Part shown: piece by piece, positions 2,769 through 61,384 of the stretch
Numbering within the stretch: position 1 is the first letter of the stretch
Layout: each line of letters begins with the position of its first letter
DNA from: Oscillospiraceae bacterium
GTDB lineage: Bacteria; Bacillota; Clostridia; Oscillospirales; CAG-272
Length of the DNA: 64,000 nucleotides
Assembly: GCA_015063905.1 (NCBI GenBank)
Contig: SVTF01000004.1
Span: forward strand, 9,082-73,081
Direction of reading: 5' to 3'
The notes under the pieces: model-generated
Database searches by the model: none
Seen by the model: the letters and a program-made list of their open reading frames with translations, nothing else
Told to the model about the DNA's origin: nothing
Position numbers and translations under genes: made by a program

Positions 2769-3325
2769 TAGGTTACGCACTTTGCGGCTCGTTTTGTACT
2801 TTTGAGCAATCATTCAAGACACTTTGCAAGCTGAAAGAAACATATCCCGACATTGTTCCGATAATGAGTTACAATGCCTATAACACGGACACCCGTTTTG
2901 GCAAAAGCCGTGATTGGAATGACAAGATTGAAAATTTATGCGGTCGCAAGATTATCAATACCATCGCTGACGCAGAGCCGCTAGGGCCCAAAAATCCTCT
3001 TGACGCATTGATCATCGCACCGTGTACCGGAAACACTCTCGCAAAGATCGCAAACGGAATTACCGACACTCCCGTTTGTATGGCAGCCAAAGCACATCTG
3101 CGGCAAGACAGACCCTTGATAATCGCGCTCGCATCTAACGATGCCATGTCGGCCAACCTTGCAAATTTATCAAAGCTACTTATGCGCAAGAGCATATATT
3201 TTGTTCCCATGCTGCAAGATGAGCCTATAAAAAAGCCACATTCATTAGTTTGCGATTTTTCGTTATTGCCCTGTGCGCTTGAAAATGCATTGATGGGTAA
3301 ACAGATAAGAAAGCTGTTTCTATAA
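2765..3325 (+). CDS. dpaB: Dipicolinate synthase subunit B (SpoVFB, flavoprotein)
   Basis: IGYALCGSFCT... and APCTGNTLAKIANGITD motifs of the flavoprotein family. ATGA overlap with dpaA. Confidence 0.85.
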   Translation: MIGYALCGSFCTFEQSFKTLCKLKETYPDIVPIMSYNAYNTDTRFGKSRDWNDKIENLCGRKIINTIADAEPLGPKNPLDALIIAPCTGNTLAKIANGITDTPVCMAAKAHLRQDRPLIIALASNDAMSANLANLSKLLMRKSIYFVPMLQDEPIKKPHSLVCDFSLLPCALENALMGKQIRKLFL

Positions 3326-3332
3326 AAAATAT

Positions 3333-3363
3333 GGGGATAGAATAAATTTCTATCCTCTTTTTT
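3333..3363 (+). terminator. Rho-independent terminator after dpaB
   Basis: GGGGATAG / CTATCCTC 8-bp stem (one G-U pair), 9-nt loop, then TTTTTT. Confidence 0.7.
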
Positions 3364-3374
3364 CATTATTTGTA

Positions 3375-3403
3375 TTGAAATATCGGAATAATTGTGATAT
3401 AAT
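3375..3403 (+). promoter_or_regulatory. Sigma-A type promoter for the riboswitch-controlled operon
   Basis: TTGAAA (3375-3380), 17-nt spacer, TATAAT (3398-3403), with TG upstream of the -10. Confidence 0.55.
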
Positions 3404-3459
3404 GTTGCTTGTACAAAAGAATAACACAGTTCATCTTCTTGATTTTGTCAAGAATTGTC

Positions 3460-3680
3460 GGGCGCTCTGCGTGACGGAGCTTCCCGGGGATAAGGAAATC
3501 GCGGTGAGAATCCGCAACAACAGCCATTACCGTATCTGATATTATTTCACAAGTCGGAATGCTTATCGTTCTGTGCCGATAAAGGACTCTTGGGCAATTG
3601 GGAGAGCGATCGGGATCACGTCGGCTCGGAGCAGGTGCCGCCGTTCCCTTTTTGCGCCCATGAGGGGCGCTTTTATTTTA
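3460..3680 (+). promoter_or_regulatory. Probable cobalamin (B12) riboswitch with expression-platform terminator
   Basis: Core GGGATAAGGAAATCGCGGTGAGAATCCGC (GGTGAGAATCC at 3503-3513) resembles the conserved cobalamin-aptamer core. A B12-box-like GCTCGGAGCAGGTGCC lies at about 3624-3639. GCGCCC/GGGCGC hairpin + TTTTATTTTA (3654-3680) sits directly upstream of the RBS. The downstream genes are a type often under B12 riboswitch control. Confidence 0.6.
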
Positions 3681-3716
3681 TCCTTTTTACAACAAAAAAG
3701 AAGGAGATCTTATTCT

Positions 3717-4199
3717 ATGAAAAAAATCATTTTAACGTTTCTTACATTGCTTCTGACATTCGCATGCATACTTTGCCTCGTTTCATGCAACCAAACGGAT
3801 TCTGACAAAAATAACGAAAGTAACGGCGATGTTACTGCATCCGGCACGGTAGAGCAAGGCGATAACAAGGTAAATGCCACGGGCCTTTGGAAAAACGCTC
3901 GCTATCTTTCCGACGTAACGATTGGAGACGGCGCTAAAACCATTAGCTTTGAGATCGAGGCTGAAGGACAAAAAATTACCGTTACCCTTAAAACCGACAA
4001 GGATAATCTTGGTGATGCAATGTACGAGGTCGGTCTTGTAAACGACCCCTCGTTCTTTGATACGCTTAACGGCATAAAGGCTGATTGGAACAAAGACAAG
4101 GCTTATTGGGGATTCTACAAGGGTGAAGAATACATGACGGTTGGTATTGGCGATGCCGGGCTCAATACTAACAGCTACCGATTTGTTTATACTAAATAA
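3717..4199 (+). CDS. Lipoprotein with DUF4430 (transcobalamin-like) domain; candidate extracellular corrinoid binder
   Basis: AAGGAG lies 7-8 nt before the ATG at 3717. Signal peptide ends in lipobox LVSC. The C-terminus NGIKADW..AYWGFYKGEEYMTVGIGD....YRFVY matches the DUF4430 pattern. The ORF-track start (3573) lies inside the riboswitch and is rejected. Confidence 0.7.
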   Translation: MKKIILTFLTLLLTFACILCLVSCNQTDSDKNNESNGDVTASGTVEQGDNKVNATGLWKNARYLSDVTIGDGAKTISFEIEAEGQKITVTLKTDKDNLGDAMYEVGLVNDPSFFDTLNGIKADWNKDKAYWGFYKGEEYMTVGIGDAGLNTNSYRFVYTK

Positions 4200-4204
4200 G
4201 CCTT

Positions 4205-4738
4205 ATGATAAAAGACAAATGGAGACGTCGAATCTCTGAGATTTGTGTTTTTTCAATGCTTGGCGCTTTGATGTTCTGCTCCAAGATACTAATGGAGGCA
4301 CTGCCGAATATTCATCTGCTCGGAATGCTCGTGATGGTGTACACATTAACCTTTAGACTAAAGGCATTGATTCCAATCTACGTATACGTATTTTTAAACG
4401 GACTTTATGCAGGATTTAACCTGTGGTGGTTCCCTTATTTGTACATTTGGACTATCCTTTGGGGTATAACAATGATACTTCCAAAGAAAATGCCAAAGGC
4501 AGTTGCGTGTATTATTTATCCGCTTGTCTGCGCTCTGCACGGTCTGGCGTTCGGAGCTCTCTATGCTCCCGCACAGGCACTTATGTTTCATTTGAATTTC
4601 AATCAGATGATTGCATGGATAGTTGCGGGATTGCCTTTTGACGTTATTCACGCTGTGGGAAATATTTTCTTGGGTATGTTAATACTGCCTCTCGCAGAGT
4701 TGCTTAAAAAACTAAGCCGACAAATTGGAATTATATGA
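4205..4738 (+). CDS. Small polytopic membrane protein, probable ECF-type S component (CbrT-like candidate)
   Basis: 177 aa with about 6 hydrophobic helices, 5 nt after the lipoprotein gene and under the same riboswitch. Family assignment is by size, topology and context only. Confidence 0.5.
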   Translation: MIKDKWRRRISEICVFSMLGALMFCSKILMEALPNIHLLGMLVMVYTLTFRLKALIPIYVYVFLNGLYAGFNLWWFPYLYIWTILWGITMILPKKMPKAVACIIYPLVCALHGLAFGALYAPAQALMFHLNFNQMIAWIVAGLPFDVIHAVGNIFLGMLILPLAELLKKLSRQIGII

Positions 4739-4782
4739 TTTAAACCGCAGATGTGCGTAATGCATATCTGCGGTTTTCACGT

Positions 4783-5661
4783 TTATTTTAAATCGTCAGG
4801 TGTAAATGAATACTTGGAATTGCAGAATCTGCACTCAACCGTAAGCTCCTCGGGCTTTCCTTCCGCCAATTGCTCTTTAAACATTTTATCGAGGTCTTCA
4901 GAACCAAGTGAGCGAAGCGCTCTTTCCATTCTGTCACGAGAGCAAGTACAAATATAGTCAACTTCTATTTCATCAAACAGATCGTACTCTATTCCACTCA
5001 TCGCAAGAGACATTATCTCCTCATTGGTCATTCCCTTATCAAACAGTGATGAAACATTAGACAAAAGCGGCACGTTATTCTCGATCTTTGTTATCGTTTC
5101 ATCATCGGCAAACGGAAGCAACTGAATAATAATACCCCCTGCGGCGCGACAGGACAGATCTGTGTCAACTAAAACGCCGAGGGCGCATACAGTTGGAACC
5201 TGCTCGCTTTGAGCATAATATGCCGTTATATCCTCGGCTATCTCTCCGGACACAAGATCAATGGATCCGTTATAGGGCTCTCCGTCGCCCATGTCCTTTA
5301 TAATATTTAGAAAACCGGCTCCAACCGCTCCGCTTACATCAAGCTTACCGTTTGATTTCAGTGGTATCTTAACGTTTGGATTGTGTATGTATCCGCGAAC
5401 GTTGCCTATATAGTCGGAAATCGCAAGAACTCTTCCCGCAGGACCATCACCGTTAAGAGATACTGTAATCGTATCGTCCTTGTCGCCAAGCATGCATCCC
5501 ATCATGGAAGTTACCGTGAGAAGACGTCCAAGCGTAGCGGTAGCGGTGGCAGATGTGTTGTGATACTCTATTGCCCTGTTTACAATGTCTGTAGAATTTA
5601 TTACGTGTATTCTCGCGCTTCCATCTCTTGTCATCGCGCGCAATATTTTAGACTGTGCCAT
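4783..5661 (-). CDS. hslO: Hsp33 redox-regulated chaperone
   Basis: Hsp33 N-terminus ([13 protein letters not shown]...) and C-terminal zinc centre CTCS...CRFC. Confidence 0.85.
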
Positions 5662-50989: not shown

Positions 50990-51031
50990 TTAAAATTTTG
51001 AGAAAGACATCAAGAAGGACATCTTTCTCAA
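50990..51031 (-). terminator. Terminator after trxB
   Basis: TTGAGAAAGA / TCTTTCTCAA 10-bp stem with a 14-nt loop, followed on the minus strand by AATTTTAAAAT. Confidence 0.6.
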
Positions 51032-51038
51032 AGCTTTT

Positions 51039-51947
51039 TTATTTATCAAGATATCTGCACGCGGCAAGCGCGGCAACAGCTCCGTCTCCGCACGCAGTAG
51101 TGATCTGACGTATCTTTTTGGTTCTGCAATCTCCCGCGGTAAACAATCCCTCTGTATCGGTAAGGCAGTCCTCATCGGACACTATATATCCCCTATCGGA
51201 CAGAGTAACCGCGTTTTTAAAGGGTTCATTTTCGGGGACCTGACCTATCGCTACAAACATTCCGTCAAGGTCGAGTCTTATTTTTTCCCCGCTCTTTTCA
51301 TTCTTGATAACAATACCGCCAAAGGTATCCTCTCCAAGTATCTCTTCAACAACACAGCCAAAGATAAACTCCACGTTTTCTCTTTCACGAAGTATCGCCG
51401 CGAGCTTTTCCTCTCCCGTCAGAAAATCAAGGTTCTGGACAACGTACACCTTCTCGCATCCGTCCGAAAGCATTATTGCCTCCTGGAGCGCTGAATTACC
51501 TCCGCCGATGACCGCAACGGTCTTGTCGGCGTAAAACGCTCCGTCACATACCGCGCAAAAGGATATTCCCTCTCCAACGAATCGCTCCTCCTTGGACAAG
51601 CCAAGCATACGGTGTCTTGATCCCGTGGCTATGATGACGGAATGAGCCATAAACTCTCCTTCCTCTGTTGTCACTACAAATATGCCGTTTCCTTCTTTAC
51701 GAACACCCGTTACCTCCTGGAGATCTATTTCCGCGCCCAATGTTACCGCGTGATCTACCAGCTTTTCCGCAAGCTCATTTCCGCTTATCTGACCAAATCC
51801 GGGATAGTTCTCTATTTTGGGTGAAAACGTCATCTGACCGCCAAACATTCCCTTTTCAAGCACAAGGACGCTTTTGTCCGCTCGGCGAGCATATATCGCG
51901 GCAGTCAGTCCCGCGGGCCCTGCTCCTACGATGATTATATCATACAT
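51039..51947 (-). CDS. trxB: Thioredoxin-disulfide reductase
   Basis: FAD motif IIIVGAGPAGLTAA, redox-active CAVCDG, and NADPH motif VIGGGNSA. Confidence 0.9.
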   Translation of the reverse strand: MYDIIIVGAGPAGLTAAIYARRADKSVLVLEKGMFGGQMTFSPKIENYPGFGQISGNELAEKLVDHAVTLGAEIDLQEVTGVRKEGNGIFVVTTEEGEFMAHSVIIATGSRHRMLGLSKEERFVGEGISFCAVCDGAFYADKTVAVIGGGNSALQEAIMLSDGCEKVYVVQNLDFLTGEEKLAAILRERENVEFIFGCVVEEILGEDTFGGIVIKNEKSGEKIRLDLDGMFVAIGQVPENEPFKNAVTLSDRGYIVSDEDCLTDTEGLFTAGDCRTKKIRQITTACGDGAVAALAACRYLDK

Positions 51948-52072
51948 AATAATTACTTCCTTTCACAAAGTAAGACTTAGGCAATCCGCTCATTTCCTTG
52001 AAGAAAACAGTTTGAATTCCGCGTCTGTTATTTCTTCCCTTCCTTGAACGGATTGCCATGGAATAATTAATG

Positions 52073-54481
52073 TTAAGCGTTAGCTACAGAATCGATATAC
52101 TTTCTGATGTTGGAAAGATTTACCGCCTTGGCAACTTCTTTTCCGTCTTCAACTACCACAAGCGTGGGAGCCTGCTTTATGCCGAATCTCTCAACGAGAT
52201 CAGCGTTATCCTCTGCATATATCTTTTCAAAGGATATTCCCGCCTTTTCAAGGAATATCACAGCCATCTTGCAGTTGGGGCAGCTCTTTGTAGCGAAGAG
52301 CAATACACCGTTAAGGTTATCGCACTCGCAGCACTCCTCCTTTACAGGAGCCGCATTTACTGTTCTCACGCCGTCAACACCGATATTGATCTCGGGATGA
52401 AGCTCATTGGATCTGTCGATATTATACGTACGTCTTTCCTTGAACTCCTGGCTCTTTCCGTCGTTCCAAGCCTGAACGGGACGGTAATATCCCGTGATAC
52501 GGCTATATACCTCTGTGGTCTTGCCGCACTTAGGACACGTATATACCTCTCCGTTAATGTAACCGTGATCGGTACATACGCTATACGTGGGAGACATGGT
52601 GTAGTAAGGAAGCTTGTAATTCTCCGCGATCTTGCGGACAAGGTTAGCCGCGCTCTTCCACGTGGGCAACTTTTCGCCAAGGAAGGCGTGGAATACTGTT
52701 CCCGAAGTATAAAGCGTCTGGAGCTCGTCCTGAATATCAAGAGCGTCAAAGATATCCTCGGTATAGCCTACGGGCAAGTGAGACGAGTTCGTATAGTAAG
52801 GAGCCGCGTCATTATCAGTTGCGGTAATGATATCAGGCCATCTCTTTCTATCGTGCTTTGCAAAGCGGTAAGAGGTGGACTCTGCGGGTGTCGCCTCAAG
52901 GTTGTAGAGGTCTCCGTACATTTCCTGATAGTCGGAAAGTCTTTCTCTCATATGGTTGAGAACGTCCTTTGCGAACTCCTGGGTCTCCTTATGAGTCATA
53001 TCCGCGCGCAACCACTTTGCGTTAAGACCAACCTCGTTCATACCGACAAGACCGATAGTTGAGAAGTGGTTATTGAACGTGCCAAGGTATCTCTTTGTAT
53101 AAGGATACAAGCCCTCGTCAAGAAGCTTTGTGATAACTGTTCTCTTTGTCTTAAGCGAGCGTGCGGATATATCCATAAGCTTGTCAAGTCTCTTGTAGAA
53201 CTCATCCTCTGTTTCGGAGAGATATGCGAGTCTTGGCATATTGATGGTTACAACACCGACAGATCCCGTGGACTCACCCGAGCCAAAGAAGCCTCCCGAT
53301 TTTTTACGGAGCTCACGAAGGTCAAGACGGAGACGGCAGCACATCGAACGAACGTCCGAGGGCTCCATATCAGAGTTGATATAGTTAGAGAAATAAGGCG
53401 TACCGTACTTTGCGGTCATCTCAAAGAGAAGCGTGTTGTTCTCGGTCTCAGACCAGTCAAAGTCGCGAGTGATGGAATATGTGGGAATAGGATACTGGAA
53501 TCCACGGCCGTTTGCGTCACCTTCGATCATGATCTCGATGAACGCCTTATTGACCATATCCATTTCCTTCTTACAATCCTTATACTTAAAGTCCATCTCC
53601 TTGCCGCCAACAATACAGTTGAGCTCTGCAAGGTCATTAGGAACTGTCCAGTCAAGAGTGATGTTGGTAAACGGAGACTGTGTACCCCAACGAGAAGGAG
53701 TATTTACGCCATATATAAAGGACTGTATGCACTGCTTTACTTCTTTATATGAAAGGTTATCCACCTTAACGAAGGGAGCAAGATACGTATCAAAGGAAGA
53801 GAATGCCTGCGCGCCTGCCCACTCATTCTGCATGATTCCAAGAAAGTTTACCATCTGGTTGCACAGCGTGGAAAGGTGTCCTGCGGGAGAGGATGTGATC
53901 TTGCCCGTTACGCCGCCAAGTCCCTCTTGAATGAGCTGCTTTAATGACCAACCCGCGCAATAACCTGTAAGCATGGAAAGGTCATGAATATGGATGTCCG
54001 CGTTTCTGTGGGCATTACCTATCTCGTCATCATATATCTCGGAGAGCCAATAGTTTGCGGTAATAGCTCCGGAGTTGGAAAGGATAAGTCCTCCGACAGA
54101 ATAGGTAACGGTGGAGTTCTCTTTTACTCTCCAGTCATTCATCTTGAGATACTTATCAACGGTCTCCTTATAGTCAAGCGCAGTGTTTCCAAGATTACGG
54201 AGCTTTTCTCTCTGACGGCGGTAAAGGATGTATGCCTTTGCAACGTCAGCATAGCCAGCCTGAACGAGAACTGACTCAACACTATCCTGAATGTCCTCAA
54301 CGGCAACAACACCGTTCTCTATTTTCTTTGAAAAATCAGCGGTTACCTTAAGCGCCAAAAAATCAATTATGTCCTGATTAAAATCTTTTTCCTGTGCTTC
54401 GAACGCTTTCTTTATAGCATCCGAGATCTTTACGATACTGAAATCAACAATTTTTCCGTCTCTCTTTTGTACGCTGTACAT
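52073..54481 (-). CDS. nrdD: Anaerobic ribonucleoside-triphosphate reductase (class III) with C-terminal thioredoxin-fold extension
   Basis: ATP-cone N-terminus (VQKRDGKIVDF), class III core, zinc site CPKCG, and glycyl-radical motif SRITGYYRPVQAWNDGKSQEFKERR. A further 114 aa (52076-52417) contain LLFATKSCPNCKMAVIFLEKAGISFEKI...APTLVV. Confidence 0.9.
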   Translation of the reverse strand: MYSVQKRDGKIVDFSIVKISDAIKKAFEAQEKDFNQDIIDFLALKVTADFSKKIENGVVAVEDIQDSVESVLVQAGYADVAKAYILYRRQREKLRNLGNTALDYKETVDKYLKMNDWRVKENSTVTYSVGGLILSNSGAITANYWLSEIYDDEIGNAHRNADIHIHDLSMLTGYCAGWSLKQLIQEGLGGVTGKITSSPAGHLSTLCNQMVNFLGIMQNEWAGAQAFSSFDTYLAPFVKVDNLSYKEVKQCIQSFIYGVNTPSRWGTQSPFTNITLDWTVPNDLAELNCIVGGKEMDFKYKDCKKEMDMVNKAFIEIMIEGDANGRGFQYPIPTYSITRDFDWSETENNTLLFEMTAKYGTPYFSNYINSDMEPSDVRSMCCRLRLDLRELRKKSGGFFGSGESTGSVGVVTINMPRLAYLSETEDEFYKRLDKLMDISARSLKTKRTVITKLLDEGLYPYTKRYLGTFNNHFSTIGLVGMNEVGLNAKWLRADMTHKETQEFAKDVLNHMRERLSDYQEMYGDLYNLEATPAESTSYRFAKHDRKRWPDIITATDNDAAPYYTNSSHLPVGYTEDIFDALDIQDELQTLYTSGTVFHAFLGEKLPTWKSAANLVRKIAENYKLPYYTMSPTYSVCTDHGYINGEVYTCPKCGKTTEVYSRITGYYRPVQAWNDGKSQEFKERRTYNIDRSNELHPEINIGVDGVRTVNAAPVKEECCECDNLNGVLLFATKSCPNCKMAVIFLEKAGISFEKIYAEDNADLVERFGIKQAPTLVVVEDGKEVAKAVNLSNIRKYIDSVANA

Positions 54482-54622
54482 CGTCTTCTCCTTTTCCTGT
54501 CATAAAAATTATATAATTATAAGTCGGCAAAAAACACCCCGCGGGCTATAAATAAACTGGGGAGCATATTTGCCAATGCGCATAGTAAAACGGCGCGGAC
54601 TGCAATCCGCGCCGCATATTGG

Positions 54623-54651
54623 ATTATACTATATTTAGTGTTTTTTGTCAA
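54623..54651 (-). promoter_or_regulatory. Sigma-A promoter of nrdD
   Basis: On the minus strand: TTGACA (54651-54646), 17 nt, TATAAT (54628-54623). Confidence 0.65.
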
Positions 54652-54673
54652 GGGCAAATACTAAATATTGTGT
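54626..54673 (-). promoter_or_regulatory. Two tandem NrdR boxes
   Basis: On the minus strand, ACACAATATTTAGTAT (54673-54658) and ACACTAAATATAGTAT (54641-54626). Each matches 14/16 positions of the acaCwAtATaTwgTgt consensus. Their starts are 32 bp apart, and the proximal box overlaps the -10. Confidence 0.7.
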
Positions 54674-54703: not shown

Positions 54704-55408
54704 TTATAATCCGCGCAATTGTGCATTTGGCACAAAAGGTAGAATTTTGTCGAGAAGGCTCTTCATTTGATCCTCGTCATACGCCTTTATTCCCTCTCCG
54801 ATAAGGTGTCCCGAGTCTTTAAATTGCTGCAAATAAAATTTCTCTTGTCCCGCAAGCCATTTGCCGATCTCAACTATATCTTCTTCGGTATGGAAGGTCT
54901 GCGACACGGTGGTTCTGAACTCAAAATCCACCCGATCACTCATAAGAAAGCCTATGCTTTCCTCTATCGGCGCAAGATCGTAGTCATCGCCAAGTCCCAC
55001 TGTTTTGCCGTACTTTTCCCTACAGTTTTTGATATCCATCGCAACGTAATCCAAAAGCCCGTCGTTTACAAGGTGCTTAAGCACGTCGGGGCGTGTTCCG
55101 TTAGTGTCAAGCTTGATCCTGTACCCAAGACTCCTTGCTTGCGCTATAAAGTCATACAGTCCCGGCATAAGAGTGGGTTCTCCGCCCGTTATAGCGATAC
55201 CGTCCAGAATGCCGACACGCTTTTTTAGAAAGGCAAGTATCTCCTCATTCTTATACATCTTCTGCGACTGAGCCTGCGTGACCAACAACGCGTTATGGCA
55301 GAACGGGCATCGCATATTGCAGCCCTTAGTAAAGAGCGTGCATGCCACACAACCTGGAAAATCAAGCAGGGTCAGCTTTTGAAGCCCCGCGAAAATCTCT
55401 TCACTCAT
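54704..55408 (-). CDS. nrdG: Anaerobic RNR activating protein (radical SAM)
   Basis: LLDFPG...LFTKGCNMRCPFCHN CxxxCxxC cluster and GGEPTL motif. Confidence 0.9.
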   Translation of the reverse strand: MSEEIFAGLQKLTLLDFPGCVACTLFTKGCNMRCPFCHNALLVTQAQSQKMYKNEEILAFLKKRVGILDGIAITGGEPTLMPGLYDFIAQARSLGYRIKLDTNGTRPDVLKHLVNDGLLDYVAMDIKNCREKYGKTVGLGDDYDLAPIEESIGFLMSDRVDFEFRTTVSQTFHTEEDIVEIGKWLAGQEKFYLQQFKDSGHLIGEGIKAYDEDQMKSLLDKILPFVPNAQLRGL

Positions 55409-55426
55409 CCTATTTCTATCTCCTAC

Positions 55427-56026
55427 TCAGGCATATCTTCTTTGTATCGCCAGAACCTTGCCAAGAATAATGACCTCTTCTACGATTATGGGTTCCATCG
55501 CGGCGTTTTCGGGTTGAAGGCGGTAATGACCTTCCTCGCGGAAAAACGTTTTGACAGTTGCCTCGTTATCAACCAGCGCGACAACGATCTCTCCGTTCTC
55601 GGCATAGCAGGTCTTTTCCGCAATGACAATATCTCCGTCAAGAATGCCTATGTCCATCATGCTATCACCCTTTATCCTGAGCGCAAACAGCTCCTCCGAC
55701 GGCTTTATCTCGGGAATATATCCTATGTATCCGTCAAAGCTTTGCTCTGCAAGGATAGGCTTTCCCGCAGCCACAGTACCCAATACGGGCACGGCGCGAA
55801 CAGAAGGCGCGTCCTCAACCAATGTAATAGCGCGGCTCTTGCCGTCCTCCTTAACTAAATAGCCAAACATTTCAAGTCTATTAAGATACATGTGGACCGT
55901 AGACGTGCTTTTATAATCAAGATCGCGGCACACATCACGGACGGAGGGAGCGTAGCCATTCTCCGCCTTAAATCTCTTAACGTAATCAAGCACCTTTTGT
56001 TCCTTTGGTTTAAGCTTTTGAGCCAT
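55427..56026 (-). CDS. lexA: LexA repressor
   Basis: wHTH N-terminus (GYAPSVRDVCRDL), Ala-Gly cleavage site (VAAGKP), catalytic GDSM, and Lys in the VVALV..EATVK region. Confidence 0.9.
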   Translation of the reverse strand: MAQKLKPKEQKVLDYVKRFKAENGYAPSVRDVCRDLDYKSTSTVHMYLNRLEMFGYLVKEDGKSRAITLVEDAPSVRAVPVLGTVAAGKPILAEQSFDGYIGYIPEIKPSEELFALRIKGDSMMDIGILDGDIVIAEKTCYAENGEIVVALVDNEATVKTFFREEGHYRLQPENAAMEPIIVEEVIILGKVLAIQRRYA

Positions 56027-58113: not shown

Positions 58114-58147
58114 AAGGGAGAAGCTTTGCGCTTCTCCCTATTTTTTA
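58114..58147. terminator. Bidirectional terminator between pckG and the LRR protein gene
   Basis: GGGAGAAGC tttgc GCTTCTCCC followed by ATTTTTTATT. Confidence 0.8.
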
Positions 58148-61100
58148 TTCTTCTTGCTTATTCTTTTTATTGATGAATACGGGTATGATGCACGCAAGTA
58201 AAACGATACATGCGCCTCCTGATATTCCCGAACCGCAGCCTGTTCCGCCATTGTTTTCATCCTTGTTCTTCTTTTCCGTCTCCTCTATCTGCTCGGTAGA
58301 GATGTTTTGTGCGCGAGTCTCGGTCTCGGTCTCGGTTTCTATTGTTGCTTGTGTTTCTGTCGTCACATCGGAATCCGTCTGTGTTTCTTCGTCAGCGCGG
58401 ACGGCATGGCCGCATTCAACGCATTTACCGCTCGAATACTGATGCTGACCCTGCTCTGTTTCGCCGCACTCGCACGAACGCACGTGTATCTCATCATTTT
58501 CCGACAACCACTCGCCAAACGTATGCTCCGCAAGCTTTTCTATGCTCTCGCTCTTTACGTATCCGCATTGGCAGACGTATTCAAGCGATCCCTCCTTAAG
58601 GTGTGTTGGCTCAAGAACCGTTTCAGGCTCTGAAAACTCGTGAGCTACTTCGTCCATTTCGTGCGCACAGTAAATGCATTGCATCTTGTGGCAAGTATCG
58701 TCAACCGGCATAAGCTCATAGTCATGTTGCTTTACGGTTGCGTTGCTAGCTCCACTAAGCCATCCCTCTTGAAGTGTTACCTTGCTCCAGTCGCCGCAAA
58801 AGATCACGTTTTTGACATCGCCGGTGACACCAAACACATCAGACTTTATTTCACGGACGCTGCTCGGTATGTATACGGTCTCCAATGGGCAGTAGAAGAA
58901 AACACCGCTTTCCAACACGCTCAGGTTTTCCGAAAGCCTTACAGACTTAAGCGCATAACACTTTTTAAAGGCATCGGGAGCAACAGTCATTACACTGTCC
59001 GGCATATACACGCTTTCAATGCAGATCACATTGGAAAATCTGTTGTCTATATGAGTAGTTCCCTCAGGGAAGACCAACTCCTTTAAAAGATCTCCGTTAA
59101 CGTAAAGATTATCCGCTCTGAAAGTATCATCCGCAAACGGATTTGTTCCCTCCTCGCTGAAATCGAATTCAAGCCACTGGGATATATCCGAAATATAAAC
59201 GTTTTCCAGATCAAAGCACCAATAAAACGTATTTCTTCCGATCGTTTTGAGCGAGGCGGGTATATGGAGATCCACAAACTCGCAACAGCTGAAGGCATAC
59301 TCCTCTATCGTTACCACGTTATCGGGTATAACAAATACGGGAGAAAGAGACGCACCGTAAAACGCTTCCTTTTCTATGACTGTTACGCCGTTTGGTATTG
59401 TGACATCCTTGAGAAGCTGGCAGCCGCTAAACAACTCTGCCGGAATCACTGTAAGGTTATTCTGAAGCCTTACGCTAACAAGCTCATCACATGAAGCGAA
59501 CGCTCCGACTCCAAGTGTCTGCACGCTGTCTGGAATATCCACGCTCCTCAAGCTCGTTCCCGAAAAAGCATATTGTCCTATACTCGTCAAGGTGTCCGTA
59601 AAGCAAAATTCAGTCAATTCACCGCAGTCCCTGAATGCTTCATCTTCTATCTTTGTCAGATTATCAAATGACGGAATGTTCACAATAGACTTACAGTTAT
59701 AAAAGGCGCCCTTGCTTATTTCGGTTATAGAATCGGGCATTATCAGCGTTTTGATATTCTCGCTGTTTGCAAAGGCGTAGTCCGCCATGGTATCAAGATG
59801 TAATACCGTTACGGTGTGAAGGCTTTTGGGAACAGAATATCCGCACTCGAAAGGATATTCCGGGTTAAAGGTCATTCTGAAATAGAATCCAAGGCAGTCA
59901 TGCTCATTAAACTCCTTGCTCTCTCCCAAGAAAGGCAAGGTCAGGGTTTCAAGGCTTGAGCAATTTCTGAACGCGGATATACCGATATATGTCACTCCTT
60001 CGGGAACTGCTATATTTTCCAAGCCAACGCACTCTTCAAACGCCGACTTGCCTATACTTTTAAGTCCTTCGGGAAGAACGAAATCCTCCAGGTTACCACA
60101 AGCGTAAAAAGTGCTGTTTCCAATCGTTTCAAGGCTTTGTGAAAACTCAACGGTTTTAAGATTAGTGCAACTTGCAAACGCCTCATCACCTAAAATCTTC
60201 AGTTGTGCGGGACAAATAAAGGATTCGATGCTTGTGCAACCTGAAAACGCGGTTTCACCGATTTCGGTAACACTGTCAGGTAATTGGGGGCTTGCGGGAA
60301 GACTAATACACCAACTGAATGCACCATCCCCGATGCTATCCAGCGCCGGCGACCATTCAATATCTTTTAGAACAGTACATTTCACAAACGAAAAAATGCC
60401 GATTGACGTTACTGATTCGGGGATTACAATGGATTCAAGGCTCGTACAGTATGAAAACATGCTATCGGAAATTTTGTCTATGGAATTGGGCAAAGTAACT
60501 TCGGACAGAGCCGAGCAATCCATAAAGCATCCCGTGCCTATCTCTTTTACGTTGTTGGGTATAACTATCTCTTTCAGAGCAGTACATTCAAGAAACGCAT
60601 ATTCGCCTATGCTTTCCACAGTTTCCGCGAAAACTACGGTTTCCAAAGACGTACATTCTCTGAATGCGCCAAGACCTATCTTTTTTGCATGTATATCGGC
60701 AATATTTAGCCCGCTGCATTTATAGAACGCGTATTCTCCTATTTCAACGCCTGCGGGTATGCTTATTTCCACAAGACCCGAACACTCTCTGAACGCATAA
60801 TTGCCAATGCTCTCAAAGTCTTGGCAAAAAGTAACGCTCTCTAAGCTTTTACAATTAGCAAAGCAATATTCGGGAATGGCTTTTCCTGAAGAAAAGGTTA
60901 CGCCTTTTAGTAGCGTTGCATCAAAGCATTCTATAAGATTTGCGGGTAGGGATAAATAATCGGGGGTATAAAAGGAATCAACCTCCATAGAGGTTACAGT
61001 ATCGGGTATCACCAGCGTCTTTATTCCCTCGGAGCTATAGAAAGTCCTTGAGCCTATGCTTTCAAGTCCATGGCACAGGGTGACCTCCGTTATGGCGGTA

Positions 61101-61384
61101 TGACCGTCAAACGCTCCCCTAGGAATGCTTGTTATTCCCTCCTCGATCACAACACTTTTGATCTCAAGGTCATCCCAGGGGTAATAATAGCCGTATTCGA
61201 TATCGCCTTGTCCGGACAACGTGATCTCTCCCAAATCGGAGTCAAAGCTCCAGGTTACGTTTTCTCCCCAAGCTCCACTTGTCACAGAGGACTCGGCGTA
61301 TACGCTTAATACACAAATACTTATTAAAACGCCAACAGTCATTAAAACAATCAGGGCACAAAAAATCAGTTTCTTCATAAACAT
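58145..61384 (-). CDS. Large cell-surface leucine-rich-repeat protein (BspA-type LRR), with C-terminal H/Cys modules, acidic T/E linker and TM anchor
   Basis: Signal peptide, then more than 25 repeats of the pattern F..C..L..I.IP..V..IG..AF..C. The C-terminal 193 aa run HDY..TC....C..C modules, an ETETETE linker, a GGACIVLLACIIPVFI helix, and NKKNKQEE. Confidence 0.85.
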   Translation of the reverse strand: MFMKKLIFCALIVLMTVGVLISICVLSVYAESSVTSGAWGENVTWSFDSDLGEITLSGQGDIEYGYYYPWDDLEIKSVVIEEGITSIPRGAFDGHTAITEVTLCHGLESIGSRTFYSSEGIKTLVIPDTVTSMEVDSFYTPDYLSLPANLIECFDATLLKGVTFSSGKAIPEYCFANCKSLESVTFCQDFESIGNYAFRECSGLVEISIPAGVEIGEYAFYKCSGLNIADIHAKKIGLGAFRECTSLETVVFAETVESIGEYAFLECTALKEIVIPNNVKEIGTGCFMDCSALSEVTLPNSIDKISDSMFSYCTSLESIVIPESVTSIGIFSFVKCTVLKDIEWSPALDSIGDGAFSWCISLPASPQLPDSVTEIGETAFSGCTSIESFICPAQLKILGDEAFASCTNLKTVEFSQSLETIGNSTFYACGNLEDFVLPEGLKSIGKSAFEECVGLENIAVPEGVTYIGISAFRNCSSLETLTLPFLGESKEFNEHDCLGFYFRMTFNPEYPFECGYSVPKSLHTVTVLHLDTMADYAFANSENIKTLIMPDSITEISKGAFYNCKSIVNIPSFDNLTKIEDEAFRDCGELTEFCFTDTLTSIGQYAFSGTSLRSVDIPDSVQTLGVGAFASCDELVSVRLQNNLTVIPAELFSGCQLLKDVTIPNGVTVIEKEAFYGASLSPVFVIPDNVVTIEEYAFSCCEFVDLHIPASLKTIGRNTFYWCFDLENVYISDISQWLEFDFSEEGTNPFADDTFRADNLYVNGDLLKELVFPEGTTHIDNRFSNVICIESVYMPDSVMTVAPDAFKKCYALKSVRLSENLSVLESGVFFYCPLETVYIPSSVREIKSDVFGVTGDVKNVIFCGDWSKVTLQEGWLSGASNATVKQHDYELMPVDDTCHKMQCIYCAHEMDEVAHEFSEPETVLEPTHLKEGSLEYVCQCGYVKSESIEKLAEHTFGEWLSENDEIHVRSCECGETEQGQHQYSSGKCVECGHAVRADEETQTDSDVTTETQATIETETETETRAQNISTEQIEETEKKNKDENNGGTGCGSGISGGACIVLLACIIPVFINKKNKQEE

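Follow-up and report, generated by a model that had tools for sequence, protein, structure and literature searches.

On its minus strand, the analysed window, i.e. the whole stretch of 64 kb, carries nrdG, nrdD and a gene for a TrxR-like flavoprotein, in this order. The features of the locus are:

54704..55408, minus strand: nrdG, radical-SAM activase of NrdD (TIGR02495 NrdG2, 212 bits, cut-off 131)
54658-54673 and 54626-54641 (together 54626..54673), minus strand: two predicted NrdR-box-like 16-mers
54623..54651, minus strand: sigma-70-type promoter of nrdD, TTGACA, spacer of 17 nt and TATAAT (12/12 match)
54590..54615, minus strand: GC-rich hairpin of 11 bp with a short U run behind it, where the nrdD mRNA is predicted to start
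52073-54481, minus strand: nrdD (802 aa)
52418..54481, minus strand: NrdD core, residues 1-688 (PF13597 at 4e-191)
52310..52417, minus strand: disordered acidic linker of 36 aa, residues 689-724 (pLDDT ~50)
52076..52309, minus strand: thioredoxin-fold redoxin domain of 78 aa, residues 725-802
51980..52057, minus strand: hairpin between nrdD and trxB, stem GGCAAUCCG...CGGAUUGCC, without U-tract
51039..51947, minus strand: trxB-like gene (302 aa), 125 bp downstream of nrdD
50996..51032, minus strand: hairpin of 15 bp between A and U runs, immediately 3' of trxB

The nrdD promoter was invariant in an alignment of eight related intergenic regions. Its -35 and -10 elements are overlapped by the two NrdR-box-like 16-mers, which are spaced by 32 bp, contain two mismatches each and were the only matches when the whole window was searched with ACACWATATATWGTGT (<=3 mismatches). 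The boxes are conserved in close relatives, and similar ones were found 5' of nrdD at 47 of 65 related loci. Tandem 16-bp boxes about 32 bp apart are the criterion for the NrdR regulon, to which nrdD would belong by this layout. The stem of the leader hairpin is conserved among relatives, its loops are variable. A scan of 46-60 kb with Rfam revealed neither a riboswitch nor a known leader, and a search for Cheo-type LexA boxes around lexA/nrdG yielded nothing exceeding chance. At 53 of the 59 informative related loci, nrdG was located upstream on the same strand.

For the downstream side, the initial annotation described a trxB-like gene with CAVC (residues 131-134), 125 bp from nrdD on the same strand, and a spacer without obvious terminator. 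Both statements were confirmed; the spacer yielded no consensus terminator and contains a strong hairpin lacking a U-tract (MFE -37.3 kcal/mol, z = -3.6; 0 of 200 shuffles folded equally well). The stem is identical at loci L002-L004, and different hairpins are present at L007-L009. This hairpin could attenuate read-through, which counts against the explanation proposed below. The hairpin 3' of trxB (MFE -18.4 kcal/mol, z = -7.6) is probably the end of the operon. A separate promoter (12/12 match) at 50960-50932 belongs to the next gene, a member of the pfkB family.

NrdD was recognized by the curated models NF006126 (1144.6 bits, cut-off 548) and TIGR02487 (522.6 bits, cut-off 326). The core comprises an ATP-cone (residues 3-92), Cys175, Met380-Cys381-Cys382, Glu529 and Gly664. 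A Zn ribbon (C636-x2-H639...C649-x2-C652) lies ahead of the glycyl-radical motif SRITGYYRPVQAWNDGKSQEFKERR (residues 660-684, with RITGYY at 661-666). By the models, this motif and the nearby nrdG, the protein is classified as a class III RNR. Residues were mapped by HMMER alignment to the NrdD of T. maritima (4COI); the alignment to 4COI and 8P23 spans the Zn ribbon and the glycyl-radical region. Cys175, Cys381/Cys382 and Glu529 align with C125, C329/C330 and E495 of T. maritima, and SMCCRL (C381-C382) aligns with S328-C329-C330-R331. In 61/61 full-length fused homologues, GYCAGW, SMCCRL, NLEATPAE and RITGYY are invariant. As summarized in PMC4493059, Wei et al. defined NrdD2 by a third Cys beside the thiyl-radical Cys and an active-site Glu, corresponding to E495 of T. 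maritima and E438 of N. bacilliformis. The scoring of active-site residues proposed in the initial annotation thus gave the redoxin-type set for the window enzyme, which by alignment bears the NrdD2 signature of third Cys and Glu529.

The same annotation proposed an enzyme independent of formate. As written, this is not supported, as the finger loop reads MCCR and retains Met380, and the finger-loop Met is part of the formate/thiosulfuranyl mechanism (PMC9669993). Because of this Met, formate would still be usable in principle. Burnim et al. described MCCR-type enzymes as having the components for either reductant (PMC9669993).

Past the glycyl-radical motif, the 114-aa extension comprises residues 689-802 (nt 52417-52076), as annotated, and the EECCEC cluster was located at residues 715-720 (nt 52322-52339). 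It carries LLFATKSCPNCK, with CPNC at residues 734-737 (nt 52271-52282). Among homologues the linker is 20-41 aa long and unconserved in sequence. Cys accounts for 4.7% of its residues compared to 1.5% in the core, and a close Cys pair (CC, CxC or CxxC) was found in the linker of 32 of 61 homologues.

A Trx-type fold of the extension had been suggested from the CxxC arrangement, and four methods agree on it. Pfam Glutaredoxin scored 26.7 bits (cut-off 22.9). AlphaFold2 modelled residues 725-802 with pLDDT ~90 in the order b-a-b-a-b-b-a, with CPNC at a helix start. With Foldseek, the top PDB matches were all thioredoxins (probability 1.0), and hhalign to E. coli thioredoxin gave a probability of 96.6% (E = 6e-10), pairing GIKQAPTL of the window with GIRGIPTL. 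The cis-Pro loop is QAPT (residues 770-773); CPNC and A-P are invariant in an alignment of 29 sequences. According to these models, the extension is a genuine thioredoxin fold and no chance CxxC. It is not a classical TrxA: the motif is SCPNC rather than WCGPC, TIGR01068 reached 30 bits for the isolated extension and 26 in the full-length protein (cut-off 96.8), and the alignment covers Trx residues 25-106 only, the N-terminal b1-a1 being absent. Identity as an NrdH redoxin was rejected, with 27 bits for TIGR02194 (cut-off 85.75), no CVQC-type motif, and an hhalign match to E. coli NrdH (79.8% probability, 48 columns) weaker than that to Trx. The AlphaFold2 model of full-length NrdD, built on a 36-sequence alignment, had a mean pLDDT of 48 and therefore gives no structural support for docking of the domain at the active site.

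Among species-representative genomes, 594 of the first 600 pattern matches encoded a tail relative. Each of the best 80 tail relatives was the C-terminus of an NrdD, and most came from uncultured Oscillospirales; the best 120 protein matches listed were all fused NrdDs. Cultured carriers are Pseudoflavonifractor sp. AF19-9AC (L069) and Acutalibacteraceae bacterium SVS042 (L081). Adjacency of trxB, the survey of which had been suggested in the initial annotation, was counted at loci with the fusion only: a trxB homologue follows in the same orientation, at most 466 bp away, at 69 of 77 informative loci, with a median gap of 41 bp and gaps of <=30 bp at 33 loci. It is absent nearby in six of the 77 genomes and lies 1.4-2.8 kb downstream in two others. 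The fusion and trxB are thus conserved together to a high degree. Eight phage contigs bear the NrdD-redoxin fusion with all catalytic residues intact, and none of them (8/8) has trxB in the 5-kb flanks; the redoxin therefore travels with NrdD. The reductant chain proposed initially would thus not be self-contained everywhere, the exceptions being the six genomes without trxB nearby, the two with a more distant trxB and the eight phage copies.

The cassette together with trxB was also present in two Lentisphaerae MAGs (L030, L051). Locus L083 has a redoxin-trxB pair without nrdD immediately upstream, which suggests that a cognate Trx/TrxR module was captured. It looks like the only real free pair. 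Stand-alone redoxin genes 3' of a shortened nrdD (P0005, P0038, P0223) were read as broken or mis-called fusions and not as natural splits. At L001 and L084 the match to the NrdD core is distributed over different frames, and at L002 and L085 it extends beyond the called gene end.

The downstream flavoprotein, labelled merely 'FAD-binding protein' by NCBI, contains GAGPAG (FAD site) and GGGNSA (residues 148-153) besides CAVC, and by GxGxxG, CxxC and GxGxxA it is a predicted low-Mr TrxR. With 333.4 bits it remains just below the equivalog cut-off of TIGR01292 (343.45), and it lacks the HRRxxxR motif for the 2'-phosphate of NADPH; at the expected place, residues 169-180 (VVQNLDFLTGEE), it reads QNLDFLT. 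The best PDB match (1e-68) was 7JYP, which we take to be a Thermosipho africanus protein and which likewise has a QNL motif. Among the TrxBs of the window and 68 related loci, the subtypes QNL (53), HRR (10), QD[ML] (3) and T[WL]F (3) were distinguished. A conserved QNLxxLTGE stands in for HRRxxxR in the QNL type, to which the window enzyme belongs. The occurrence of varied subtypes in one slot argues for selection on function and not for shared ancestry. The window enzyme is less similar to structures of ferredoxin-dependent flavin TrxRs (FFTR; 129 bits for 6GNA) than to 7JYP and canonical TrxRs, with which it reached ~234 bits; it lacks HRRxxxR, yet GxGxxA is retained. The T[WL]F-type TrxB of L001 was rejected as an FFTR, as 6GNA-6GND were absent from its matches at E <= 1e-30; its best match was 4ZN0.

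NADPH as donor, assumed in the initial annotation, is not supported by the window TrxB and is doubtful because of the missing HRRxxxR. For TrxRs without this motif other donors are documented, namely NADH for the TR of T. acidophilum, F420 for the TR of M. jannaschii and ferredoxin for clostridial FFTR (PMC6262447, PMC10880999). The window enzyme resembles them in having an FAD site and CxxC but no Arg cluster for the 2'-phosphate of NADPH, and differs in its own conserved QNLxxLTGE. Judged by these motifs, the ultimate donor in the source organism is probably not NADPH, and we favour NADH or a low-potential carrier.

The domain architecture, residue signature, fold, co-conservation and promoter/box layout described above are results of the analysis; all electron-transfer steps and the donor are inferred. 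We consider it fairly probable that the locus encodes a redoxin-dependent (NrdD2-type) class III RNR with covalently attached thioredoxin. NrdG would install the glycyl radical at Gly664, and a thiyl radical would arise on Cys382 (or Cys381). Substrate reduction would leave a disulfide of Cys175 and the neighbouring finger-loop Cys, with Glu529 as base. The CPNC dithiol of the Trx-like domain, held on its flexible linker of 20-41 residues, would re-reduce this disulfide by itself or, where the linker bears a Cys pair, through that pair, and would in turn be reduced by the downstream TrxR-like flavoprotein (CAVC/FAD). Expression would be driven by the NrdR-controlled promoter, with trxB co-transcribed through read-through; the absence of a consensus terminator from the spacer and the strong hairpin after trxB were counted in favour of this explanation.

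Other explanations are possible for the attached domain. Redoxin and TrxB might keep Cys residues reduced so that NrdG is able to form the radical, either those of the Zn ribbon and glycyl-radical domain or others that become oxidised, while the substrate is reduced by formate via Met380 and Cys175. According to the account in PMC4390871, thioredoxin was reported to activate the formate-dependent class III RNR of E. coli (Padovani et al. 2001). The redoxin domain is joined only ~40-70 residues past the Zn ribbon, Met380 is retained, and occasional exposure to oxygen appears plausible for gut anaerobes. However, this role leaves unexplained why the fusion was found only on full redoxin-type cores (third Cys and Glu, 61/61), and a stoichiometric tethered redoxin with a translationally coupled reductase would be excessive for occasional repair, so we regard it as unlikely. 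We judge about equally improbable that the enzyme switches between formate and the tethered redoxin with the metabolic state, the Trx/TrxB arm being an alternative route. The MCCR loop and Glu do supply components of both chemistries (PMC9669993), and adjacent trxB is missing from some genomes and every phage copy, but use of both reductants has been shown for no enzyme, and the conservation of the fusion over many species-level genomes suggests that the thiol route dominates.

Finally, trxB could encode the general thioredoxin reductase of the cell, without a dedicated tie to the C-terminal domain. The canonical and possibly housekeeping HRR-type TrxB at ten loci would agree with such a coincidental neighbourhood, as would the 125-bp spacer of the window with a hairpin inside. 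Against this, adjacency persists in 90% of informative loci while the identity of TrxB to the window enzyme drops to 45%, many gaps measure 0-30 bp, the cassette was co-transferred into Lentisphaerae and L083 has an independent pair of this type, redoxin and trxB; a mere coincidence thus seems very improbable.

The redoxin-dependent reading can be compared with known systems. The NrdD of N. bacilliformis (NrdD2) is described as being reduced by TrxA/TrxB/NADPH (Wei et al. 2014; accounts in PMC9669993, PMC4493059, PMC4390871). In those accounts it shares with the window enzyme the extra finger-loop Cys and the active-site Glu, and its turnover disulfide is reduced by a thioredoxin system, as proposed here. 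In contrast, its Trx and TrxR are described as separate and general-purpose, its loop as SCCR without Met and its TrxR as using NADPH, whereas in the window a C-terminally fused redoxin is combined with an MCCR loop and with a reductase that is co-operonic and without the NADPH motif. Methanosarcina barkeri NrdD3, reportedly described by Wei et al. in 2015, is said to work with an NrdH-like redoxin and ferredoxin:disulfide reductase. It would resemble the present case in a dedicated small redoxin and reductase encoded with nrdD and in a donor other than NADPH, but reportedly has no Glu, a redoxin encoded by a separate gene and an Fe-S FTR-like reductase, where the window has a flavoprotein TrxR.

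In Grx::ATP-cone::NrdB of Facklamia ignava, the Grx part was demonstrated to serve as the RNR reductant (PMC6187632). Here too a redoxin is covalently joined to an RNR subunit; that fusion, however, is class I, with N-terminal Grx and glutathione dependence, and the present one is class III with C-terminal redoxin. A RefSeq survey of 2018 lists one Glutaredoxin:NrdD fusion from Lachnospiraceae bacterium TWA4 (WP_082039398.1, subclass NrdDd; PMC6187632), a single case without analysis of trxB linkage, which we liken to the window protein by description only. Beyond this listing, our literature search found no characterisation of an NrdD-redoxin fusion.

The C-terminal Cys-pair tails of class I and II RNRs offer a further parallel, as a flexible extension is proposed here to bring reducing equivalents to a buried disulfide. 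These tails carry a Cys pair only, which is reduced by external Trx or Grx, while in about half of the fused NrdDs the flexible linker possesses a Cys pair as well. Class III was previously thought to be without such a tail (PMC4390871). A three-station relay from the TrxR-like flavoprotein via CPNC and the linker Cys pair to the Cys175/Cys381 disulfide, perhaps fed by NADH or a low-potential carrier through the QNL-type TrxR, would correspond in class III to the shuttle of classes I and II. We propose this only tentatively and consider it rather doubtful; if true, dNTP synthesis of gut Clostridia and their phages would depend on another electron pool.

The MCCR loop is shared by most double-Cys class III RNRs, for which formate, thioredoxin or both come into question as physiological reductant (PMC9669993). 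The fused NrdD appears to be a real and widespread variant of redoxin-dependent class III RNR, and its sequence features suggest that it is recharged by protein thiols and not by formate alone. The family is strong genomic evidence for the use of protein dithiols by MCCR enzymes. The natural 1:1 tether offers a system for learning how a redoxin gains access to the buried active site of class III, and the cultured carriers are usable for genetics or protein work. Furthermore, a TrxR subtype with conserved QNLxxLTGE was brought to light. The fusion and the following TrxR-like gene occur in many genomes of gut Clostridia, and some phages of gut anaerobes bear the fused NrdD as an auxiliary gene.

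The nrdD gene of the window is the third of four head-to-tail minus-strand genes, and the sequence strings and coordinates quoted for it in the initial annotation were all correct on checking.

Genes and sequence elements of the nrdD locus (window coordinates)
55427-56026, minus strand: lexA, first of the four genes
54704-55408, minus strand: nrdG (TIGR02495, 212 bits)
54590-54615, minus strand: 11-bp GC-rich hairpin with short U run, exactly at the predicted nrdD transcription start
52073-54481, minus strand: nrdD, 802 aa
52322-52339, minus strand: Glu-flanked Cys pair in the NrdD linker; the linkers of 61 homologues are also covered
51980-52057, minus strand: nrdD-trxB intercistronic hairpin, z = -3.6, no U-tract
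51039-51947, minus strand: TrxR-like gene (trxB), 302 aa
51429-51437, minus strand: QNLxxLTGE motif replacing HRRxxxR, conserved in most nrdD-linked TrxBs (related loci L003-L082)

For identical proteins of an Oscillospiraceae/Ruminococcaceae MAG, GenBank gives only the names "ribonucleoside triphosphate reductase" and "FAD-binding protein". The nrdG start lies 18 bp after the lexA stop codon (window 55409-55426), and this linkage is retained in the closest relatives (L002-L005, L007, L008). No Cheo-type LexA box was found near lexA/nrdG. Further along the window, a 1079-aa protein (58145-61384, minus strand) consists nearly entirely of BspA-type leucine-rich repeats (PF13306, 3e-165).

The class III core of NrdD is complete (PF13597, 4e-191; NF006126, 1145 bits, residues 2-688), with an ATP-cone at residues 3-92 and a C-terminal extension of 114 residues. 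In a HMMER alignment, Y174-C175, M380-C381-C382-R383 and E529 correspond to Y124-C125, S328-C329-C330-R331 and E495 of T. maritima NrdD. In the scheme of Wei et al., the third Cys and the Glu together define the redoxin-dependent subtype NrdD2 (PMC4493059); both are present in the window enzyme and invariant in 61 full-length homologues. The check on diagnostic active-site residues proposed in the initial annotation found this redoxin-type set, and by these residues the core would be of the redoxin type. The finger loop reads MCCR, not SCCR. The Met is kept in 83% of double-Cys class III enzymes, so that either formate or thioredoxin could in principle be used by enzymes of this kind (Burnim et al., PMC9669993). 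Formate independence of the fused NrdD, which had been proposed, is unproven. Ahead of the glycyl-radical loop, a Zn ribbon (residues 636-652; window 52526-52576, minus strand) shows the Cys3His pattern C-x2-H...C-x2-C, as do the aligned homologues covering this region, whereas the P. copri NrdD structure has a four-Cys CxxC...CxxC Zn site.

A thioredoxin fold had been suspected for residues 689-802 and was established for residues 725-802 with AlphaFold2, Foldseek and hhalign. In the AlphaFold2 model (29-sequence alignment) these residues reached a pLDDT of ~90 with the order b-a-b-a-b-b-a, and CPNC opens the first helix; disorder was predicted for residues 689-724. The top Foldseek matches in the PDB were thioredoxins only (probability 1.0, rmsd 2-3 A), among them a chain with thioredoxin fold from the B. 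subtilis RNR complex. With hhalign, E. coli thioredoxin was matched at 96.6% over Trx residues 25-106, with GIKQAPTL opposite GIRGIPTL, and NrdH was further away (79.8%). The Pfam Glutaredoxin model matched above its gathering score; the NCBIfam thioredoxin, NrdH and YruB models matched weakly. Because of these results the extension is a genuine redoxin domain, thioredoxin-like, N-terminally shortened and with a CPNC motif. It lies outside every named subfamily.

Positions 167-500 of L083, a related 501-bp contig, hold a gene for a separate 74-aa redoxin of this type (TKTCPNCK, KQAPTLV) and, 8 bp further on, a TrxB-like gene; the gene ending just upstream is not NrdD-like. This free pair suggests that the fused domain derived from a cognate redoxin-reductase pair.

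The linker comprises 20-41 residues and is fairly acidic (18% Asp/Glu), with no other conservation. Its Cys content is 4.7%, compared with 1.5% in the core. Two closely spaced Cys (CC, CxC or CxxC), often with Glu alongside, occur in 32 of 61 genomes and in five of seven phage copies. The pair could act as a relay dithiol like that of the class I/II tails, or bind a metal; it is non-essential, since 17 of the 61 linkers lack any Cys.

Among protein clusters similar to the window NrdD, the top 120 share 80-97% identity with it; nearly all have 789-828 residues (one has 950), and most give Grx or Trx Pfam matches. A pattern search of GTDB (one genome per species) gave more than the 600 matches listed. 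A relative of the C-terminal piece is encoded in at least 594 matches (594 of the first 600), and the best 80 of those listed are all NrdD C-termini, 76 in frame with the core. Carriers are mainly uncultured Oscillospiraceae, Acutalibacteraceae and other Clostridia from animal guts, with two isolates, Pseudoflavonifractor sp. AF19-9AC and Acutalibacteraceae bacterium SVS042. Other carriers are a Frisingicoccus MAG (Lachnospiraceae) and three Lentisphaerae or Victivallales MAGs (L030, L046, L051). All three have this nrdD fusion, its core 82-84% identical to that of the Clostridia enzyme, and in two of the three trxB is adjacent. The cassette seems to have crossed between phyla, with MAG contamination as the alternative.

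Co-occurrence of fusion and trxB, another proposed check, proved to be conserved: 69 of 77 informative loci have a same-strand trxB homologue within 466 bp downstream (median gap 41 bp; at most 30 bp in 33 loci). In two further loci trxB is 1.4-2.8 kb off, with transporter genes inserted between, and in six the neighbours are unrelated. Upstream, nrdG was found in 53 of 59 loci.

nrdD is served by a perfect sigma-70 promoter of its own, and two predicted NrdR-type boxes 32 bp apart, the only such matches in the window, overlap this promoter. Promoter, boxes and the GC-rich hairpin at the predicted mRNA 5' end are conserved among close relatives; in six of these the hairpin stem is conserved and the loops are variable. 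Possible roles of this hairpin are termination of lexA-nrdG transcription, stabilisation of the mRNA 5' end or attenuation. As noted initially, there is no consensus terminator in the 125-bp nrdD-trxB spacer, but a strong hairpin is located there. Its stem is the same in L002-L004; L007-L009 have different hairpins, L006 and L010 have none, and it is missing where the two genes nearly abut. The hairpin may control how much TrxB is made relative to NrdD. trxB is followed by a 15-bp hairpin between runs of A and U (z = -7.6) and then by a gene with its own promoter. The predicted arrangement fits one nrdD-trxB transcription unit.

The window TrxB contains the FAD site, CAVC and GGGNSA, and carries VVQNLDFLTGEE at the place of HRRxxxR in E. 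coli TrxR. Among 69 nrdD-linked TrxBs (window and 68 related loci) the site types were QNL (53), canonical HRR (10), QD[ML] (3) and T[WL]F (3). The TrxB gene next to nrdD in Pseudoflavonifractor sp. AF19-9AC (L069) is of the HRR type. The QNL motif is also present in 7JYP, the best PDB match, and structures of ferredoxin-dependent flavin TrxRs (FFTR) matched far more weakly. Among TrxRs without HRRxxxR, the T. acidophilum enzyme is known to take its electrons from NADH, that of M. jannaschii from F420 and clostridial FFTR from ferredoxin (PMC6262447, PMC10880999). Because the motif is absent and other donors are documented for such enzymes, NADPH, the donor initially assumed, is doubtful in this organism. 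The varied subtypes at the same slot behind fused nrdD argue for selection on functional pairing of NrdD and TrxR.

The fused gene was also detected on eight IMG/VR phage contigs (L089-L096, match ~3000-5400; core identity 70-83%); every catalytic residue is preserved there, and so is CPNC. L092 and L093 lack the ATP-cone. Neighbouring genes encode terminase, primase with exonuclease, DNA polymerase and methyltransferases; nrdG adjoins in L095 only, and no trxB was found within 5 kb on the eight contigs. The redoxin domain travels with NrdD in phages, and the reductase is presumably host-supplied.

Taken together, the proposed thiol chain of NrdD, redoxin and TrxB is well supported by comparative sequence evidence, except for its NADPH donor, given the absent HRRxxxR. 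One Glutaredoxin:NrdD fusion, from Lachnospiraceae bacterium TWA4, is listed without discussion in Table S1 of a 2018 RefSeq survey (PMC6187632). We found no study on NrdD-thioredoxin fusions or their trxB linkage in the literature searched; a passing mention in Wei et al. 2014 is possible. The NrdD-redoxin fusion is a widespread, uncharacterised variant of redoxin-dependent class III RNR.
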